Shown here: piece after piece, positions 2,409 through 34,607 of the stretch | Layout: every line of letters starts with the position of its first letter | Numbering within the stretch: position 1 is the stretch's first letter | DNA from: Escherichia coli O127:H6 str. E2348/69 | GTDB lineage: Bacteria > Pseudomonadota > Gammaproteobacteria > Enterobacterales > Enterobacteriaceae | Assembly: GCF_000026545.1 (NCBI RefSeq) | Contig: NC_011601.1 | Strand: one strand, 5' to 3' | DNA: 64,000 nt | Translations under genes and position numbers: made by a program | Notes under the pieces: model-generated | What the model was told of the DNA's origin: nothing | Seen by the model: only the letters and a program-made list of their open reading frames with translations | Database searches by the model: none

Positions 2409-3116
2409 ATGAATACCCAACGAAAATACGGGAGAACCTGGCATTACCCCTTCTCTCCAGGCACCACCAGCGATGACCGCATTAACACCGATTACTGGCA
2501 GGATTTAAAGGCCATCACGCAATTGGTGCACACAGAAAAACTCGATGGCGAAAATAACTGCCTTAACCGCTACGGCGTGTTTGCCCGCTCCCATGCCACG
2601 CCTACGCAGTCGGCATGGACCTATAAAATTCGCCAACGCTGGCAACTGCTGAAAAACGATCTCGGCGACCTGGAGTTGTTTGGTGAAAATCTCTACGCCG
2701 TTCATTCCATTGAATACCGCGCGCTGGAACAGGACTTTTACCTGTTTGCCGTTCGCTGCCAGGATATGTGGCTGAGCTGGGAAGAGGTGCAGTTTTACGC
2801 CGCTCTGTTTGATTTCCCCTGCGTTCCCGAAATCTCCGGCCCGCAGCCGGGGAATGATGAAAAAAGCTGGCAACGTGATTTTCTGGCGCTGGCCAATGCG
2901 CGCGGCACATTCGATCCCTGGGATACGCAAACCTGGCAACCCTGTACGCTGGAAGGCATTGTCAGCCGAAATCATGATGCGTTTTCTGTCGCTGACTTTT
3001 CGCATAACGTCTTCAAGTATGTGCGCAAAAATCATGTCAAAACCACTGTGCACTGGAAACGCCACTGGCAACGGGCGCGGATGGCCCATGAGTTCGTTTA
3101 TGGAGAACAGTCATGA
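2409..3116 (+). CDS. ATP-dependent RNA ligase family protein (nucleotidyltransferase domain)
   Basis: 235 aa ORF; covalent nucleotidyltransferase motif I K-x-D-G in TEKLDGEN; ligase-like FGENLY and KYVRK motifs; no K-12 counterpart at this locus. Confidence 0.65.
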
Positions 3117-4225
3117 TTTGGCAACTTACCGACGATAAACGCTGGTCGGCGCTACGTCAGCGTTTTAGCTGGGTTGAGGAGATGCATCACACGCCACAAG
3201 ACCCTGAGCATCATGGTGAAGGCGACGTCGGCGTACATACCGAAATGGTGCTTAACGCCCTCATTACTCTGCCAGAATTCCAGCAACTCCCCGCTCAACA
3301 GCAGGAAGTTTTATGGGCGGCGGTGTTATTGCATGATGTTGAAAAGCGCAGCACTACCGTGCAGGAAAACGGACGTATTCAGTCTCCTGGTCATGCTCGT
3401 CGGGGCGAACTGACGGCCCGACAAATTTTATGGCGCGATATCCCAACGCCGTTCGTGCTGCGCGAGCAAATTGTTGCACTGGTGCGTCTGCATGGGTTAC
3501 CGCTATGGTTACTGGAACGCCCGGAACCGGAGCGTTTGTTGCTCACGGCTGCAATGCGCATCGACACGCGTCTGCTCGCTTTGCTTGCTCGTGCCGATCT
3601 GCTTGGTCGCCAAAGCCCGGATCAGCAATCAATGCTGGAACGCATCGATCTGTTCGAGCTGTTTTGCCATGAGCAACAATGCTGGGGAAAAATGCGCCCG
3701 TTCGTTTCTGATTCCGCACGCTGGCATTACCTGACCCATGAGCAAAGTTCTCCTGATTTTGTTCCCTGGGGGGCTGAACCTTTTGAGGTTATTTTGCTGT
3801 GTGGCTTACCGGGTATGGGCAAAGATCGCTATATCAGTGAACAGTGCCAGGGAATTGACGTTATCAGCCTTGATGATATGCGGCGGCGAATCAATGCCAG
3901 CCCGGATGACAAAACCGCTACCGGGCGTATTGTGCAACAGGCAAAAGAAGAGGCGCGCGTTTTTTTACGCCAGAAAAAGCCGTTCATCTGGAATGCAACG
4001 AACATTACCCGCCAGCTGCGTAGCCAGCTCATCAGTCTGTTTACGGCTTACGGCGCACGAGTAAAAATCGTTTATCTGGAAGTGCCATGGGCGCAATGGA
4101 AGCAGCAAAATGCCAGACGCGAGTATGCAGTTCCTGAAGCGGTCGTGATGCGGATGGCCTCAAGGCTGGAAGTTCCTCAACCTGATGAAGCACATAGCGT
4201 GGAGTATCGGGTGATTGAAAGGTAA
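3113..4225 (+). CDS. HD-domain phosphohydrolase fused to P-loop kinase-like domain (putative RNA end-healing enzyme)
   Basis: 370 aa ORF; start overlaps upstream stop (ATGA); N-terminal H..HD motifs ([17 protein letters not shown]); C-terminal Walker A-like [10 protein letters not shown]. Confidence 0.65.
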
Positions 4226-4247
4226 ATAAATATCCTCCGGCATAGCC

Positions 4248-5797
4248 CTGTCTCTTATACACAAATCCCCACCCGGGGATTTGTGATGTCTGTCAGTCTG
4301 CTTTAGGGGGACTCTTTCCATCCGGTAGTTTCCTTCCTCCCCGGCAGCGATTTTTTGAACTTTTTCCTCACCTGTTGATCTTCTCTTATATTTCATTTTC
4401 TTCGGGTCTGTTATGGTACTTTCTGATTGTTATTCATGGGCTAACGAGCAGTTTGGACATGCCCGTCTCGGTGATCCGCGTCGTACACGACGCCTTGTGT
4501 CACTGGCCTCTTCTCTCGCTCAGCATGCAGGTCTTTCTATTGTGAAATCATCCCAGTCCACTGCTCAGGTTGAAGGTGCGTACCGCCTGATACGTAACCC
4601 GTCTGTGTCCCCGCAAGCCATTGCCGAAGCCGGATTTACCGCCACTGTAAGGGCATGTGAGGCTCATCCGCTGCTCCTCGCGCTGGAAGACACCACCACC
4701 ATTAACTTCAGTCACAGTACGGCATCTGATGACCTGGGGAATACCACCACTAACCCGAAGACGCGCGGGCTGCTGGCTCACTCTGTCCTGATGTACGCCC
4801 CCGACAGCGCCCTGCCAGTCGGTCTTATCGAACAGCAGCGCTGGAGTCGTGCCACGGACACCTACGGTGTTAAGCACCAGCGAAAAGAACGTCCCTATGA
4901 AGAAAAAGAAAGTTACCGCTGGCAGCAGGCTTCGGAGCGCATGGCCGAACGGCTGGGGGAGATACAGAAACGGGTAATCACTGTCTGTGACCGGGAAGCG
5001 GATATCTGGCATTACCTGCATTATAAAGTCAGCCACGGGCAGCGCTTCGTGGTGCGTGCAGCACAGAATCGCCGGCTGGAAGAAGCACCCGGCAAGCTCT
5101 TCGAACTGCCGGAAGTCCTGGCAACCGCGGGAAGCCACACGCTGAATGTGATGCAAAAAGGCGGGCGGGCAGCCCGCCAGGCCCGGATGTTCATCAGTTA
5201 CAGCGAAGTCAGCATAAAAAATCCCGACAACAGCGGCCAGGCGCTCCCGCTCACGTATGTCTGTTGCCGGGAGCAGGCAGAGGACGGCGCCTGCTGGCAT
5301 CTGCTGACGTCAGAAAAAGTGGCGAGTGCCGCCGATGCGCGACGTATCGTCAGCCATTACGAGCGACGCTGGCTGATAGAGGAATACCACAAGGCGTGGA
5401 AAAGTGGTGGTACATGTGTGGAATCGCTGCGAATGCAGACCCGGGATAACCTCGAGCGCATGGTGGTTATCAAGGCGTTTATCGCGGTGCGGGTGCTGGG
5501 CCTGCGGCAGGGCGGTATCAGTGAAGAAACACAAAATGACAGCTGTGAGAAAATACTGACGCCGACAGAGTGGAAACTGCTGTGGGTTAAGCTGGAAGGA
5601 AAACCGCTTCCGTCACAGATGCCGACACTGAAATGGGCCTGTCTGAAACTGGCGAAACTGGGGCGATGGCATGACAGCAAACGCACCGGTCGCCCCGGTT
5701 GGGTAGTCATGTGGGATGGCTGGTTCAGACTTCAGGATATGGTTGAGGGTTACCTGGTGATGAAGTCTCTTGATCAGGAGATCTGATCAAGAGACAG
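4248..5797 (+). mobile_element. IS4-family IS50(Tn5)-like insertion sequence, copy 1 (1550 bp)
   Basis: Ends CTGTCTCTTATACACAAATCC and AGATCTGATCAAGAGACAG (the latter matching the Tn5 inside end as recalled); 9-10 bp duplication cggcatagcc; identical to copy 2. Confidence 0.85.
4413..5786 (+). CDS. IS4-family DDE transposase (Tn5 Tnp-like)
   Basis: 457 aa; Tn5 transposase-like motifs GDPRRT, VCDREADI, RWLIEEYHKAWKSGG, DNLERMV, DSKRTG. Confidence 0.88.
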   Translation: MVLSDCYSWANEQFGHARLGDPRRTRRLVSLASSLAQHAGLSIVKSSQSTAQVEGAYRLIRNPSVSPQAIAEAGFTATVRACEAHPLLLALEDTTTINFSHSTASDDLGNTTTNPKTRGLLAHSVLMYAPDSALPVGLIEQQRWSRATDTYGVKHQRKERPYEEKESYRWQQASERMAERLGEIQKRVITVCDREADIWHYLHYKVSHGQRFVVRAAQNRRLEEAPGKLFELPEVLATAGSHTLNVMQKGGRAARQARMFISYSEVSIKNPDNSGQALPLTYVCCREQAEDGACWHLLTSEKVASAADARRIVSHYERRWLIEEYHKAWKSGGTCVESLRMQTRDNLERMVVIKAFIAVRVLGLRQGGISEETQNDSCEKILTPTEWKLLWVKLEGKPLPSQMPTLKWACLKLAKLGRWHDSKRTGRPGWVVMWDGWFRLQDMVEGYLVMKSLDQEI

Positions 5798-5893
5798 CGG
5801 CATAGCCGGAGGTTTTTCAAATGCGCCTATAAGGCTCTCTTACCAGCCGCGCCCTAACAGGCGCACACGATCTGACATTTGCATCCAACTTCG

Positions 5894-6352
5894 TTACTTA
5901 CGGCCCGTAAACGGGCTGCCCGGATAGGGAATCGATAACTGCTCTCCCATTTTATCCTCTTCAAGCTGGTGCTTTATGTAATCCTGTATCTTCGCCGTGT
6001 TCTTACCCACCGTATCGACGTAATACCCTCTGCACCAGAACTCCCTGTTCCTGTACTTGAATTTCAAATCACCAAACTGCTCGTAAAGCATCAGACTGCT
6101 TTTCCCTTTCAGATATCCCATAAAGCCGGATACGCTCATTTTGGGCGGGATCTCCACAAGCATATGGATATGATCTGCACAGCATTCAGCTTCCAGAATC
6201 CGTACACTTTTCCACTCACACAGCTTTCTCAAAATACAGCCTATTGCTCTACGCTTCTCTCTGTAGAACACCTGTCTTCGGTATTTTGGCGCAAATACTA
6301 TGTGATATTTACAGTTCCATCGGGTGTGCGCTAAGCTCTTTTCGTTCCCCAT
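5894..6352 (-). CDS. tnpA: IS200-family transposase TnpA (Y1 HuH)
   Basis: MGNEKSLAHTRWNCKYHIVFAPKYRR N-terminus, HIHMLV HuH motif, C-terminal catalytic Tyr region; ORF 5894..6403 with start at internal Met. Confidence 0.85.
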   Translation of the reverse strand: MGNEKSLAHTRWNCKYHIVFAPKYRRQVFYREKRRAIGCILRKLCEWKSVRILEAECCADHIHMLVEIPPKMSVSGFMGYLKGKSSLMLYEQFGDLKFKYRNREFWCRGYYVDTVGKNTAKIQDYIKHQLEEDKMGEQLSIPYPGSPFTGRK

Positions 6353-6544
6353 TGGGACCCCCTTTTGATTTCTTGTTTGACACTTGCAGTTGCCAGACCG
6401 CAAGGTGTTTTAACAAATCAAAAGGGGTTTTAATAACTGGCTCAAAGCTGAAAGCTTTCCGGAACCCCCAGCCTAGCTGGGGGTTTTCTGTGCACAAAAA
6501 ACCGGGCGGTGGTGTCACCTGCCCGGCTTCTTTTGTTCCACTGA

Positions 6545-29540: not shown

Positions 29541-30068
29541 TTAGAACATCAGCGCCGTGCGGCGGCGTTTTTCTGCGCTCAGTTGTTCAAGTTTATTACG
29601 ATCGACACAAATCAGCGCATGGGTCGGGCAAGCCGCCATACACGCCGGGCCGTCTTCACGATGGTTGCACAGGTCGCATTTATTGGCTTCGGCTTTGTCA
29701 GCCCGTACATTCAGTCCTGCGCCGCTGTTGCGAATCACCGGACGCACCACCACTTCCATCGCACCATACGGGCAAGCCACAACGCAGGTTTTGCAACCAA
29801 TACAACGTTCCTGCATGACATGAACAAACCCTTTATCACGGCTGATAGCACCATTCGGGCAGACGTTAGCGCACGGTGCATCTTCACACTGACGGCAAAC
29901 TGTCGCCGTGGAAATGTTCACACCTTTAATGACATGGATACGCGGTAAAAATGTTTCCGGGGTCAGCGATGCACAGTCCTGATTTTCCTGATGAGAAACC
30001 ACGCACGCCACTTCACAGGTACGGCAACCAATACATTTACTCGCGTCAGCAATGATGAAACGGTTCAT
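29541..30068 (-). CDS. hydN: Electron transport protein HydN (4Fe-4S ferredoxin-like)
   Basis: [22 protein letters not shown]..., multiple CxxCxxCxxxCP motifs. Confidence 0.93.
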
Positions 30069-30436
30069 CAAATTCTCCAGCAATAACAGTTAATGCGCCG
30101 ATACATTCACAAATCATGCCAGTTTTTAATTTACTGTTATTTAAGGAAATTAAATTCTGTAATGCAGGAAAAACGATGTCATCGACACTAGTGACGATGA
30201 CATGTGATGACAGTATTTATCGTTGCCAGTCCACATCTGGGTACTTTTTTCCGACAAGTCGTTCTGGTGGTATAAAAAAGTAATTGCCAGTAACGGGGAG
30301 GATTTAAGGGAAGCAACCGTGCCGGATACGGCGTGAACAATGACCACTTTGTCAGCTATCCATATGATTGTATTTTGAGGTTCATCGCAGATTAGCGATG
30401 AACCTTTATTGTGCACAGAAAACCCCCAGCTAGGCT

Positions 30437-31986
30437 CTGTCTCTTATACACAAATCCCCACCCGGGGATTTGTGATGTCTGTCAGTCTGCTTTAGGGGGA
30501 CTCTTTCCATCCGGTAGTTTCCTTCCTCCCCGGCAGCGATTTTTTGAACTTTTTCCTCACCCGTTGATCTTCTCTTATATTTCATTTTCTTCGGGTCTGT
30601 TATGGTACTTTCTGATTGTTATTCATGGGCTAACGAGCAGTTTGGACATGCCCGTCTCGGTGATCCGCGTCGTACACGACGCCTTGTGTCACTGGCCTCT
30701 TCTCTCGCTCAGCATGCAGGTCTTTCTATTGTGAAATCATCCCAGTCCACTGCTCAGGTTGAAGGTGCGTACCGCCTGATACGTAACCCGTCTGTGTCCC
30801 CGCAAGCCATTGCCGAAGCCGGATTTACCGCCACTGTAAGGGCATGTGAGGCTCATCCGCTGCTCCTCGCGCTGGAAGACACCACCACCATTAACTTCAG
30901 TCACAGTACGGCATCTGATGACCTGGGGAATACCACCACTAACCCGAAGACGCGCGGGCTGCTGGCTCACTCTGTCCTGATGTACGCCCCCGACAGCGCC
31001 CTGCCAGTCGGTCTTATCGAACAGCAGCGCTGGAGTCGTGCCACGGACACCTACGGTGTTAAGCACCAGCGAAAAGAACGTCCCTATGAAGAAAAAGAAA
31101 GTTACCGCTGGCAGCAGGCTTCGGAGCGCATGGCCGAACGGCTGGGGGAGATACAGAAACGGGTAATCACTGTCTGTGACCGGGAAGCGGATATCTGGCA
31201 TTACCTGCATTATAAAGTCAGCCACGGGCAGCGCTTCGTGGTGCGTGCAGCACAGAATCGCCGGCTGGAAGAAGCACCCGGCAAGCTCTTCGAACTGCCG
31301 GAAGTCCTGGCAACCGCGGGAAGCCACACGCTGAATGTGATGCAAAAAGGCGGGCGGGCAGCCCGCCAGGCCCGGATGTTCATCAGTTACAGCGAAGTCA
31401 GCATAAAAAATCCCGACAACAGCGGCCAGGCGCTCCCGCTCACGTATGTCTGTTGCCGGGAGCAGGCAGAGGACGGCGCCTGCTGGCATCTGCTGACGTC
31501 AGAAAAAGTGGCGAGTGCCGCCGATGCGCGACGTATCGTCAGCCATTACGAGCGACGCTGGCTGATAGAGGAATACCACAAGGCGTGGAAAAGTGGTGGT
31601 ACATGTGTGGAATCGCTGCGAATGCAGACCCGGGATAACCTCGAGCGCATGGTGGTTATCAAGGCGTTTATCGCGGTGCGGGTGCTGGGCCTGCGGCAGG
31701 GCGGTATCAGTGAAGAAACACAAAATGACAGCTGTGAGAAAATACTGACGCCGACAGAGTGGAAACTGCTGTGGGTTAAGCTGGAAGGAAAACCGCTTCC
31801 GTCACAGATGCCGACACTGAAATGGGCCTGTCTGAAACTGGCGAAACTGGGGCGATGGCATGACAGCAAACGCACCGGTCGCCCCGGTTGGGTAGTCATG
31901 TGGGATGGCTGGTTCAGACTTCAGGATATGGTTGAGGGTTACCTGGTGATGAAGTCTCTTGATCAGGAGATCTGATCAAGAGACAG
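30437..31986 (+). mobile_element. IS4-family IS50(Tn5)-like insertion sequence, copy 2 (1550 bp)
   Basis: Same termini as copy 1; perfect 9-bp target duplication agctaggct at 30428..30436 and 31987..31995. Confidence 0.88.
30602..31975 (+). CDS. IS4-family DDE transposase (Tn5 Tnp-like)
   Basis: Identical 457-aa protein to copy 1. Confidence 0.88.
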   Translation: MVLSDCYSWANEQFGHARLGDPRRTRRLVSLASSLAQHAGLSIVKSSQSTAQVEGAYRLIRNPSVSPQAIAEAGFTATVRACEAHPLLLALEDTTTINFSHSTASDDLGNTTTNPKTRGLLAHSVLMYAPDSALPVGLIEQQRWSRATDTYGVKHQRKERPYEEKESYRWQQASERMAERLGEIQKRVITVCDREADIWHYLHYKVSHGQRFVVRAAQNRRLEEAPGKLFELPEVLATAGSHTLNVMQKGGRAARQARMFISYSEVSIKNPDNSGQALPLTYVCCREQAEDGACWHLLTSEKVASAADARRIVSHYERRWLIEEYHKAWKSGGTCVESLRMQTRDNLERMVVIKAFIAVRVLGLRQGGISEETQNDSCEKILTPTEWKLLWVKLEGKPLPSQMPTLKWACLKLAKLGRWHDSKRTGRPGWVVMWDGWFRLQDMVEGYLVMKSLDQEI

Positions 31987-32112
31987 AGCTAGGCTGGGGG
32001 TTCCGGAAAGCTTTCAGCTTTGAGCCAGTTATTAAAACCCCTTTTGATTTGTTAAAACACCTTGCGGTCTGGCAACTGCAAGTGTCAAACAAGAAATCAA
32101 AAGGGGGTCCCA

Positions 32113-32571
32113 ATGGGGAACGAAAAGAGCTTAGCGCACACCCGATGGAACTGTAAATATCACATAGTATTTGCGCCAAAATACCGAAGACAGGTGTTCT
32201 ACAGAGAGAAGCGTAGAGCAATAGGCTGTATTTTGAGAAAGCTGTGTGAGTGGAAAAGTGTACGGATTCTGGAAGCTGAATGCTGTGCAGATCATATCCA
32301 TATGCTTGTGGAGATCCCGCCCAAAATGAGCGTATCCGGCTTTATGGGATATCTGAAAGGGAAAAGCAGTCTGATGCTTTACGAGCAGTTTGGTGATTTG
32401 AAATTCAAGTACAGGAACAGGGAGTTCTGGTGCAGAGGGTATTACGTCGATACGGTGGGTAAGAACACGGCGAAGATACAGGATTACATAAAGCACCAGC
32501 TTGAAGAGGATAAAATGGGAGAGCAGTTATCGATTCCCTATCCGGGCAGCCCGTTTACGGGCCGTAAGTAA
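32113..32571 (+). CDS. tnpA: IS200-family transposase TnpA (Y1 HuH)
   Basis: Identical to copy 1 TnpA. Confidence 0.85.
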   Translation: MGNEKSLAHTRWNCKYHIVFAPKYRRQVFYREKRRAIGCILRKLCEWKSVRILEAECCADHIHMLVEIPPKMSVSGFMGYLKGKSSLMLYEQFGDLKFKYRNREFWCRGYYVDTVGKNTAKIQDYIKHQLEEDKMGEQLSIPYPGSPFTGRK

Positions 32572-32722
32572 CGAAGTTGGATGCAAATGTCAGATCGTGT
32601 GCGCCTGTTAGGGCGCGGCTGGTAAGAGAGCCTTATAGGCGCATTTGAAAAACCTCCGGCTATGCCGGAGGATATTTATTGAATAATACTATTTCGACTG
32701 AAATAACAGGTAAGGATACAAA

Positions 32723-33151
32723 ATGGGTTCATGGGGAATGGAGGCTCTCGAAAGCGACGAAGGGCTGGATTTGATTAATTGGGTAGAGGAACAACTGCAA
32801 GATGATTCGACCTTTGATGCCGAGTCAATTGTTCAACGCTTAAGCCAGCATGAAGATTTGTTCGGATTTCAGGGAGATGAAGAATTTCTCTACGATAATA
32901 ATGTTATCGGTCTCGTTGAACTTATCATTCAAAAAGCAGCCGGGAAAAAAATCACATCGAGTAAACAAATTGATCAACTCGACGGTTATCAGCTCACGTC
33001 GACTTTCAGCAAAAAACTCCAGGGCCGTTTACAAACAATCGACGACACACATGAGTGGATAATGCTTTTCGAGGGGCGAGCACGCGAAAAAGCAAAAGCA
33101 TATCTGATTGAGCTTACTGATAAATTAAGAGTAGTAAAGACAACAGCCTGA
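32723..33151 (+). CDS. Hypothetical acidic protein (142 aa), function unknown
   Basis: Intact ORF with downstream hairpin terminator; no family recognised by inspection. Confidence 0.5.
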   Translation: MGSWGMEALESDEGLDLINWVEEQLQDDSTFDAESIVQRLSQHEDLFGFQGDEEFLYDNNVIGLVELIIQKAAGKKITSSKQIDQLDGYQLTSTFSKKLQGRLQTIDDTHEWIMLFEGRAREKAKAYLIELTDKLRVVKTTA

Positions 33152-33242
33152 ATGACAAACAAGGGCGCGCAAAATTAAGAATCTGCGCCCTTTCAAAGCC
33201 CGACAGGCGTAGCGCATCAGGCGATTTAGCGTCTGCCATCAG

Positions 33243-33662
33243 TCAAAGAAACCATTCCGGCTTAACGCCAAATCGGGCTGAAAGTGCCTTAATGTGGGAT
33301 ATCGTCAGGGATCGTTGTCCAGATAAAATCTGACTGACCAGGGATTTAGAGCCGATTTCGTTCTTCAAATCCGCATAGGTCAGATTATGTTGATCAATCA
33401 GCGTACGAAGTAACGCCACGCCAACCGACATTGCTGCAACGGCTTTGTCGAACTCTGCAAACTTTTCGTTATTGTTTTCATATTCTGCAATGCGGCTCGC
33501 CAGAAAGTCGATAAGTGGATTGGTGTCATCTTCTTCAATCAAATATTCGACCAGTTCCAGTGCTTCACGATAATCATCTTCTGAGTCACTGCCTCCCAGA
33601 AAGGGGACTGCATTGACCAGTTCTCTTGTTGCTTTAACAGCGCGTGCAGCATTAGCAGTCAT
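33243..33662 (-). CDS. higA: HigA-like antitoxin (HTH, Xre family)
   Basis: 139 aa; resembles K-12 HigA as recalled (AVPFLGG, ALELVEYL, IGSKSLVSQILSGQRSLT, FGV); start overlaps toxin stop. Confidence 0.75.
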   Translation of the reverse strand: MTANAARAVKATRELVNAVPFLGGSDSEDDYREALELVEYLIEEDDTNPLIDFLASRIAEYENNNEKFAEFDKAVAAMSVGVALLRTLIDQHNLTYADLKNEIGSKSLVSQILSGQRSLTISHIKALSARFGVKPEWFL

Positions 33663-33970
33663 TCTTTGTTCTCTCTGTAGTAACGTGTCAGTTTGTCATA
33701 CTCTGCGTGATTCGTGATGTGCTTCACAAAGAACCGCTTATTAACAAAGTTTATGTAGGCAATAACCCTAAGATTGTTCCCGCCGACATCCAGAACGTAC
33801 CATTTGTTGCGATATTTAAAATTGTCGAGGTTGGGAAAAGCCGTTCGCATTTCTTCTGGCGTAGAAAAATCCGTTTCCTTAATAACCCGATACAATGAGT
33901 GTAGAGCCAGAGCGTCGTTAGGATATTTGCGCGCACACTCTTCAAATGGCGCTTTCGAAATGATGTGCAT
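33659..33970 (-). CDS. higB: HigB-like mRNA interferase toxin (RelE/ParE superfamily)
   Basis: 104 aa from internal Met with SD aggaag; FPNLDNFKY...YVLDVGGNNLRV...HAEYD resembles K-12 HigB as recalled. Confidence 0.75.
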   Translation of the reverse strand: MHIISKAPFEECARKYPNDALALHSLYRVIKETDFSTPEEMRTAFPNLDNFKYRNKWYVLDVGGNNLRVIAYINFVNKRFFVKHITNHAEYDKLTRYYRENKE

Positions 33971-34136
33971 TTTAACTTCCTTATTAGCGCCTGAATGACT
34001 AAACCTGGACAACCATTCCTTGGGATTTATTTTTCTATAGTAGTTGATCACACGGGTGTTCACAATATGTAAACACCCGTCTACACGTCACAATAGCACG
34101 TCCAAATTCCAAAACGTGAACATGTTTGTCTACGAA

Positions 34137-34607
34137 CTACTCTTCTTCCGCCGCTAACTGCGCGAAGCCGCCATTTCCTTCCCAGCCTTCCAGCCGCTGA
34201 TACACCGTTTCCACCGCATCTTTAATCTGCTGAGTCATCGGGTAGTAAAAGCCGACGATATCCGGCTGGATGCCAAGGAAAATCACTTCGCCAATATCTT
34301 CTTTCAACTGGTCGATAAGATAGTTCAGCGGCATGTTATGGGTAGTCATCATAAACATCTCGGCGATGTCAGCCGGGTCGATGATGCGGATCTCGCTAGG
34401 GTTTAGCCCCATATCCGTGGCGTCGACAATAAGCAGCCGTGTCGGGCGCAGTTCGCGGATAGCGACAATGTCGTTTTCCGGTGCGCTACCGCCGTCAATC
34501 ACTACCCAGTTACCTTTCGGCGCGGCAGCGCACTTTTCCGCCAGTAGCGGGCCTGCGCCATCATCGCCCATCATGCTATTGCCAACACAGAGTAAAACGT
34601 CAGTCAC
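34137..34607 (-). CDS. hycI: Hydrogenase 3 maturation protease HycI
   Basis: 156 aa, HycI sequence by recall. Confidence 0.93.
   Translation of the reverse strand: MTDVLLCVGNSMMGDDGAGPLLAEKCAAAPKGNWVVIDGGSAPENDIVAIRELRPTRLLIVDATDMGLNPSEIRIIDPADIAEMFMMTTHNMPLNYLIDQLKEDIGEVIFLGIQPDIVGFYYPMTQQIKDAVETVYQRLEGWEGNGGFAQLAAEEE

Follow-up and report, generated by a model that had tools for sequence, protein, structure and literature searches.

What is the gene pair that lies beside hycI in enteropathogenic Escherichia coli O127:H6 strain E2348/69, and what would its toxin do? In the stretch of 64,000 nucleotides of contig NC_011601.1 (assembly GCF_000026545.1) analyzed here and called the window below, a small basic protein and an acidic partner are encoded on the minus strand between hydN and hycI, and an earlier note on this DNA had proposed a toxin–antitoxin (TA) module of the HigBA type. 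The pair is a real and intact, already annotated, and otherwise ordinary accessory type II TA module of known kind; RefSeq labels the toxin, WP_000547555.1, a "type II toxin-antitoxin system HigB family toxin." We consider it very probable that the pair is a horizontally acquired chromosomal operon that joins a HigB_toxin (PF09907) protein to a HigA protein with an Xre-type helix-turn-helix (HTH) domain, and that SehA/SehB is its closest studied member. What goes beyond the earlier account is the affinity of the toxin to SehA, a conserved and lineage-specific operator, and a decay of the locus across E. coli in which the toxin is lost first.

The resemblances to HigB and HigA proposed in the earlier note held when checked against profile hidden Markov models. 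The toxin matches HigB_toxin (E 4.6e-23), and its residues 1–100 align with the structure of K-12 HigB (5IFG_A, E 7e-22); residues 85–138 of the antitoxin match Pfam HTH_3 (E 8e-9), and residues 9–138 align with K-12 HigA (5IFG_B, E 3.5e-34). The genes are co-oriented with the toxin first, and, as the note had described, stop and start overlap, here as ATGA. Both open reading frames (ORFs) are full length, each with a Shine–Dalgarno (SD) sequence. The toxin length of 104 residues given there becomes 103, counted from an ATG preceded by the SD sequence AAGGAAG. A longer mechanical ORF of 134 residues, from a GTG at 34063, was rejected because it crosses the operator and is unsupported by homologue lengths. 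The conserved residues of the toxin family are all intact in E2348/69, and the toxin of strain EC581 is identical to it. Between E. coli alleles, synonymous and non-synonymous changes stand at 5:0 to 11:3 in the toxin gene and at 1:0 to 14:0 in the antitoxin gene, with synonymous changes in excess in every informative comparison of either gene. The pair is thus under purifying selection. Chance can be excluded, given the strong family matches of both proteins and the preponderance of synonymous changes between alleles.

The putative operator of the pair is a 29-bp palindrome with 13-nt arms, a 3-nt spacer, and a single mismatch. Its core, GTTYACA-N3-TGTRAAC, occurs once in the window, compared with 0.02 occurrences expected. 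The same core is found directly 5′ of the toxin gene, once or twice, in 20 of 34 loci from other genera (L014–L047) and also in two of the four Salmonella prophage loci; the genera concerned are Leclercia, Mangrovibacter, Yokenella, Kluyvera, Citrobacter, Photorhabdus, Hafnia, and Xenorhabdus. Relatives usually have two such sites 38 bp apart, flanking the −10 box. The putative promoter of E2348/69 has its −35 box (TTGTGA, 34060–34065) inside the right operator arm, followed after a 17-nt spacer by the −10 box (TACTAT, 34037–34042), and the relatives share this placement of both boxes relative to the operator. Other E. coli alleles have only a 19-bp core in common with E2348/69, the flanks being unrelated, and carry a degenerate second site. 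The palindrome of K-12 higBA (12-nt arms, 3-nt spacer) has the same geometry and another sequence. Autorepression by lineage-specific HTH antitoxins would produce such a pattern.

The distribution of the pair was surveyed in 5426 complete E. coli genomes. Of these, 2508 have at least the antitoxin gene, always as a single chromosomal copy, and 1091 (about a fifth of the total) have both genes, including Nissle 1917 and O111 strains. Strains that have the asc genes carry the same pair between ascB and hycI, with or without a 253-residue ORF between toxin and hycI, so asc loss and TA presence are independent, and the pair does not occupy the ascGFB position that the earlier note had assigned to it. 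In some strains, asc is replaced by the 142-residue ORF of this locus (ORF142), and the pair is present too. Roughly 1400 carriers have lost the toxin by deletion and retained the antitoxin, with only the last nine or so toxin codons left (examples are L003:6578-7208, L051:2501-3746, and L052:2501-3746). The deletions have at least two structures, one removing the toxin with most of the 253-residue ORF and the other removing the toxin and promoter only. The orphan antitoxin (WP_000126294.1) is the same protein as in toxin-bearing strains despite 13–14 synonymous differences, a pattern of substitution that suggests it is still under selection. What survives in the ascB–hycI spacer of K-12 (L006:7401-7580) is the sequence that immediately follows the stop codon of the antitoxin gene, some 26 bp from the 3′ end of the 253-residue ORF, and the hycI-proximal end. 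Since pieces of both flanks of the block remain, the spacer is no empty site but the scar of a deletion that took the entire block. The description of the pair as island-borne was thus overstated: the insertion sequence (IS) elements at hydN–hycI entered later and are specific to this strain, different E. coli lineages have the locus in common, and K-12 has its scar. The locus would be an old, mobile-element-derived resident that is decaying toxin first, and not a recent island of E2348/69.

The ORF between toxin and hycI, of 251–253 residues with a signal-peptide-like N terminus, is found in many strains (L002:6902-7663; L004:7459-8214). It had no match in Pfam-derived libraries, NCBIfam, PADLOC, or PHROGs, and it is absent from E2348/69 and EC581, which have at this place (33971–34136) a 160-bp leader unrelated to it. 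Toxin-first decay is also seen at the rlmG–fadH locus of E2348/69 (L009:7419-7909), where only the last 78 bp of the canonical higB remain and higA is intact; the same pattern has been reported in other B2 strains (PMC7232551). The hycI-side pair is therefore not a second complete HigBA module, as had been claimed, and it is the only intact pair of its toxin family found in E2348/69, the rest of the genome not having been searched. The orphan K-12-type HigA is 44.5% identical to the hycI-side antitoxin, and cross-talk between the two is possible. Relatives at 77–79% identity occur on a Cronobacter phage (JK004) and on large plasmids, with 1041 plasmid records matching in all, mostly from Klebsiella. 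In Salmonella enterica, pairs that are 69–70% identical lie beside the cI-like repressor and cro of lambdoid prophages (L010–L013, 5001–5728).

How the pair would act, we infer from this anatomy. A single σ70 promoter would drive the toxin and then the antitoxin, translationally coupled by the ATGA overlap, and an antitoxin dimer would repress the operon by binding the palindrome that overlaps the −35 box. Through its N-terminal domain, the antitoxin would sequester the toxin and so neutralize it. Once the acidic antitoxin was broken down or no longer resupplied, the toxin, a basic protein with a RelE fold, would be set free and would cause translation shutdown and growth arrest. K-12 HigA represses its own promoter, and activation of the K-12 system needs Lon (PMC2814082).

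The molecular target is best approached through SehA, to which a paper citing structure 5IFG gave the lead. Typhimurium SehA was not among the top 120 protein-database matches to the E2348/69 toxin or to a primer-fragment construct, and a peptide-pattern scan of genome contigs misses it because the patterns do not occur in SehA. The sehAB genes were recovered from metagenome contigs with a 24-mer from the published sehB primer, and the SehA sequence used here was identified by comparison with published primers and residue numbers and not with the LT2 record. The recovered SehA and SehB are consistent with both, and also with the identity of 40% to K-12 HigB given in the literature. In one Salmonella-type copy (L050), a C-terminal frameshift was mended by adding the four residues GNKE, for which the published primer and L049 served as sources. 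The original description of SehAB, a paper of 2013, is marked as retracted, and the facts on SehAB given here come from papers of 2020 and 2026.

According to the accessible part of the SehA study (PMC12817084), SehA is without RNase activity, binds the double-stranded RNA-binding domain of RNase III, and blocks rRNA processing, with a toxicity that depends on rnc and is abolished by alanine substitution at Y53, D61, H88, Y91, K93, T95, Y97, or Y98. All eight residues are kept in the E2348/69 toxin, which is 58% identical to SehA and 39% identical to K-12 HigB; K-12 HigB keeps four of the eight, with D61, K93, Y97, and Y98 replaced by N, F, V, and H. By analogy, inhibition of RNase III by the E2348/69 toxin falls only just short of an even chance. 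Sequence alone does not decide between this mode and that of K-12 HigB, in which the toxin would be a ribosome-dependent mRNA interferase that makes A-site cuts in translated mRNA, with no role for RNase III. An interferase of this kind is a substantial possibility, although we would not quite expect it. It fits the shared Pfam family, the full-length alignment with the K-12 HigB structure, and the in vivo observation that cleavage by K-12 HigB was limited to translated mRNA (PMC2814082); set against it are the lower toxin identity and the four replaced residues. It would also fit K56, R68, H88, Y91, and T95, which do not vary between K-12 HigB and the SehA-like lineage and may be of the kinds that act in RelE-type catalysis. 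The in vitro RNase test of SehA, as the accessible text of that study describes it, combined purified toxin with a total RNA extract and no translating ribosomes, and it is therefore by itself blind to ribosome-dependent cleavage. The invariant residues and the design of that assay weigh against our reading of the pair as a working operon of the SehA kind, as do several other points. As far as the same source goes, the SehA–RNase III mechanism is the result of one study only. The antitoxin is about equally distant from SehB (43–45% identity) and K-12 HigA (46%), its identity to the Salmonella prophage copy being 70%. The promoter is weak, with 8 of 12 positions matching the consensus, which is why it was not listed by the promoter scan, and the second operator of the relatives is absent upstream of the E2348/69 toxin. 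Finally, of the E. coli genomes with the antitoxin, more than half have a deletion of the toxin, which is therefore dispensable, perhaps costly.

The weak promoter and missing operator would suit a decaying remnant, silent or inactive in E2348/69, and so would the repeated decay of the locus, with the toxin deleted in at least two independent ways and the whole block lost from K-12, where a scar is left. We nevertheless regard such a remnant as quite improbable, as neither ORF is truncated, SD sequences and a coupled stop and start are present, the conserved family residues are intact, and the substitutions between alleles are mostly synonymous; moreover, an active toxin would be the simplest reason for seeing only toxin-first deletions. 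It is also conceivable that the main role of the pair is defense or competition between mobile elements and not stress dormancy, either through abortive infection of phage or because the pair once served a plasmid or prophage as an addiction module and has since become fixed in the chromosome; the toxin-less alleles, which are widespread, would then be anti-addiction antitoxins. The relatives near cI and cro in prophages, on phage JK004, and on plasmids point in this direction, as does the unchanged protein of the orphan antitoxin. So do the PADLOC matches of the toxin to PD-Lambda-2_A (E 1e-15) and of the antitoxin to the N-terminal part of PD-Lambda-2_B (E 9e-14), PD-lambda-2 being an experimentally validated abortive infection system with a HigB-like component (PMC9519451). 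However, the pair is not PD-lambda-2, in which the HigB-like protein is the neutralizer and not the toxin; according to the RefSeq annotation of the locus, no further defense genes adjoin the pair. We rate such a role as rather unlikely, and we retain the reading of an intact chromosomal TA operon whose closest studied member is SehA/SehB.

More speculatively, and with rather low confidence, one may extend the SehA mode to the species. The toxin, which about 20% of the complete E. coli genomes carry in intact form, including those of enteropathogenic E2348/69, Nissle 1917, and O111 Shiga toxin-producing strains, might be a SehA-type RNase III inhibitor and not an mRNA interferase, and the toxin-less alleles, which are commoner still, might be kept, together with the orphan canonical HigA, as anti-addiction antitoxins or regulators against the numerous plasmid and phage relatives. 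If so, the pair would extend to E. coli the mechanism of SehA, in which a RelE-fold toxin inhibits RNase III instead of cutting mRNA, and E. coli, with its rnc mutants and ribosome-profiling tools, would be an easy test ground for it. The locus also offers a natural series at one chromosomal site within one species, consisting of intact pair, orphan antitoxin, and empty scar. With it one could ask what leads to the loss of a chromosomal toxin when purifying selection still maintains its antitoxin. In annotations, calling the E2348/69 toxin HigB should not imply the activity of K-12 HigB.

Table 1. Features of the hydN–hycI segment of E2348/69, in window positions
Feature	Position	Strand	Description or basis
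ascB 3′ remnant, 83 bp	30256-30338	+	85% identity to K-12
IS200C interrupted by ISEc13	30411-32680	+	RefSeq annotation; insertion mapped against strain PAR
ISEc13, IS50-like, IS4-family	30437-31986	+	inserted in IS200C left-end hairpin loop
ISEc13 transposase	30602-31975	+	matches Tn5 transposase, E 6e-84
Rfam STnc490, Hfq-binding small RNA (sRNA) of IS200 5′ region	31980-32103	+	117 bits, E 6e-24
IS200C tnpA	32113-32571	+	RefSeq annotation
ORF142, 142 residues, isoelectric point (pI) 4.5, acidic, all-helical	32723-33151	+	divergent DUF4259 member; outside the TA operon
GC-rich hairpin between the convergent ORF142 and antitoxin genes	33161-33192	.	terminator-like site, minus-strand scan
Antitoxin gene, 139 residues, pI 4.7	33243-33662	-	N-terminal toxin-binding/dimerization domain and C-terminal Xre-type HTH
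Toxin gene, 103 residues, pI 9.2	33659-33970	-	HigB_toxin (PF09907), SehA-like lineage
SD sequence AAGGAAG, 5 nt 5′ of toxin ATG	33976-33982	-	read from sequence
Putative σ70 promoter	34037-34065	-	read from sequence
Putative operator, 29-bp palindrome ACGGGTGTTTACA-TAT-TGTGAACACCCGT	34052-34080	-	inverted-repeat search
Operator core GTTYACA-N3-TGTRAAC	34058-34074	-	motif

A 1537-bp query over the pair locus is 100% identical to E. coli E2348/69 NZ_CP059840.2. From hydN to hycI, the order in this strain is ascG stub, ascB remnant, IS200C/ISEc13, ORF142, hairpin, a spacer resembling a repetitive extragenic palindrome (REP), antitoxin, and toxin. As the earlier note had stated, the asc genes are missing here, K-12 having ascG-ascF-ascB in this place; apart from the ascB remnant, only a 5-nt stub of ascG is left, and the deletion scar starts at about 30223, at the ascG stop. 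The note was also right that an unknown ORF stands at the asc position, since the ORF142 segment and the IS elements lie at the deletion scar, but the pair does not. The GC content of the pair segment is 42–44%, compared with 52–53% in the flanks. The hairpin between ORF142 and the antitoxin, which is followed by the REP-like sequence at about 33198–33225, is likely a bidirectional terminator, judging from its sequence. An Rfam scan of 30000–34600 found the IS200 sRNA alone, and NCBIfam gave no match for any of the four proteins tested. Literature searches by RefSeq protein accessions and by higBA with ascB and hycI returned no paper on the E. coli hycI-side pair.

The IS elements had been described in the earlier note as an IS200/IS50 composite. 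Both elements are real, but a composite transposon was rejected, as ISEc13 is nested within the IS200C hairpin. ISEc13 has IS50-like ends and is flanked by a 9-bp target duplication, AGCTAGGCT, at 30428–30436 and 31987–31995. The STnc490 match begins at the ISEc13 insertion point, and its upstream sequence is therefore replaced by the IS end. The window holds a second nest of ISEc13 in IS200C at 4245–6505, with the IS200 in the opposite orientation; there, ISEc13 (4245–5797) sits in the right-end hairpin loop, and the target-site duplication is about GGCATAGCC. The two independent insertions suggest that ISEc13 prefers IS200 terminal hairpins as targets.

The acidic 142-residue ORF noted before is confirmed. 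ORF142 is preceded by an SD sequence of its own and converges on the antitoxin gene. Its own match to Pfam DUF4259 (PF14078) is weak (E 0.011), but 10 of the 15 relatives in the alignment reach E ≤ 0.001; an N-terminal MGxWG..SD..LD motif is invariant among the aligned sequences. The AlphaFold2 model (predicted local distance difference test 88, predicted template modeling (TM) score 0.85) has TM-scores of 0.75–0.82 to models of DUF4259 proteins, and no solved structure was found to resemble it. From the alignment and the model, ORF142 is a divergent DUF4259 protein. The fold is also a domain in proteins annotated as Knr4/Smi1-like, DUF2185, DUF3592, and MORN-repeat, and that ORF142 might be an immunity-type protein is only a guess from these domain fusions. 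ORF142 is present in 725 of the 5426 genomes and absent from the asc-positive strains that carry the TA genes; it is independent of the pair because each occurs without the other. Many of the E. coli copies are shortened (81–115 residues). The ORF is nearly confined to E. coli, the exceptions being a 64–66% identical protein of Listeria costaricensis and weaker Firmicute relatives. The Listeria gene (L054:5001-5444) stands alone between a GH65 hydrolase gene and cdaA.

Elsewhere in the window, a gene pair annotated as "RNA ligase family protein" and "ATP-binding protein" lies at about 2409–4225, between emrB and the IS pair beside luxS, a site at which we take K-12 to have nothing; this pair may be an accessory or defense-type module. 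Between hypF and norW (about 23173–27062) is a cluster of IS remnants that comprises a partial transposase, a frameshifted IS3-family gene, ISEc21, an integrase-core fragment, and a frameshifted IS1397. At about 16417–18721, mltB directly adjoins gutQ. In K-12, srlAEBD-gutM-srlR presumably lies between them, and the sorbitol operon appears to be missing from E2348/69 on that assumption.

Among known systems, the HigB–HigA of Proteus vulgaris/Rts1 (PF05015 type) shares with the pair a toxin-first order, a RelE-superfamily fold, and an Xre-type antitoxin, but it belongs to another Pfam toxin family, and the domain order of its antitoxin is reversed with respect to the E. coli type (PMC7160566). 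A search of the Protein Data Bank (PDB) with the E2348/69 toxin gave no sequence match to the Rts1 HigB, and SehA is given as only 25% identical to it in the accessible part of PMC12817084. PD-lambda-2 (Vassallo et al. 2022) resembles the pair in its HigB-like A protein and in its B protein, which starts with a HigA-like Xre HTH region that matches the antitoxin over positions 9–115 of the 402-position B profile. Unlike the pair, it consists of three genes: toxicity resides in the B protein, which has an ImmA/IrrE-type peptidase at its C terminus, and defense cannot do without a third, P4-antitoxin-like gene. Neither the ORF list nor the RefSeq annotation has a third gene between antitoxin and ORF142, and with the peptidase domain absent as well, membership of PD-lambda-2 was rejected. 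By analogy, the system shows that the family can be used in defense; it is not evidence of such use by the E2348/69 pair.

K-12 HigB/HigA (YgjN/YgjM; PDB 5IFG and 6KML) is closer in kind. It is of the same Pfam family, aligns over the full length of both proteins, and agrees in gene order, ATGA-type coupling, antitoxin domain order, and operator geometry (12–13-nt arms, 3-nt spacer), whereas it differs in operator sequence and chromosomal location and is 39% identical in the toxin and 46% identical in the antitoxin. SehA/SehB (STM4031/STM4030.S) differs in location, as its neighbors are an esterase gene and a yiiD-like gene and not hycI, and its antitoxin is only 43–45% identical; with the toxin at 58% and the site different, the idea that the pair is the E. 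coli orthologue of SehAB was rejected. The SehAB operator has two sites with the half-site GTTTTCA, as two palindromes on the −35 and −10 boxes (PMC7160566), whereas the E2348/69 pair has one site with GTTTACA, so the two-site layout of SehAB and most relatives is not found in E2348/69. Inhibition of RNase III is, in the accessible part of PMC12817084, reported for SehA only. In their construction, the two systems are nonetheless alike: both are toxin first with an overlapping start, both have a C-terminal HTH in the antitoxin and palindromic operators at the promoter, and both have a PF09907 toxin of 103 residues in which the C-terminal helix motif H88-x2-Y91-x-K93-x-T95-x-Y97-Y98 and all eight residues needed for SehA toxicity are present.

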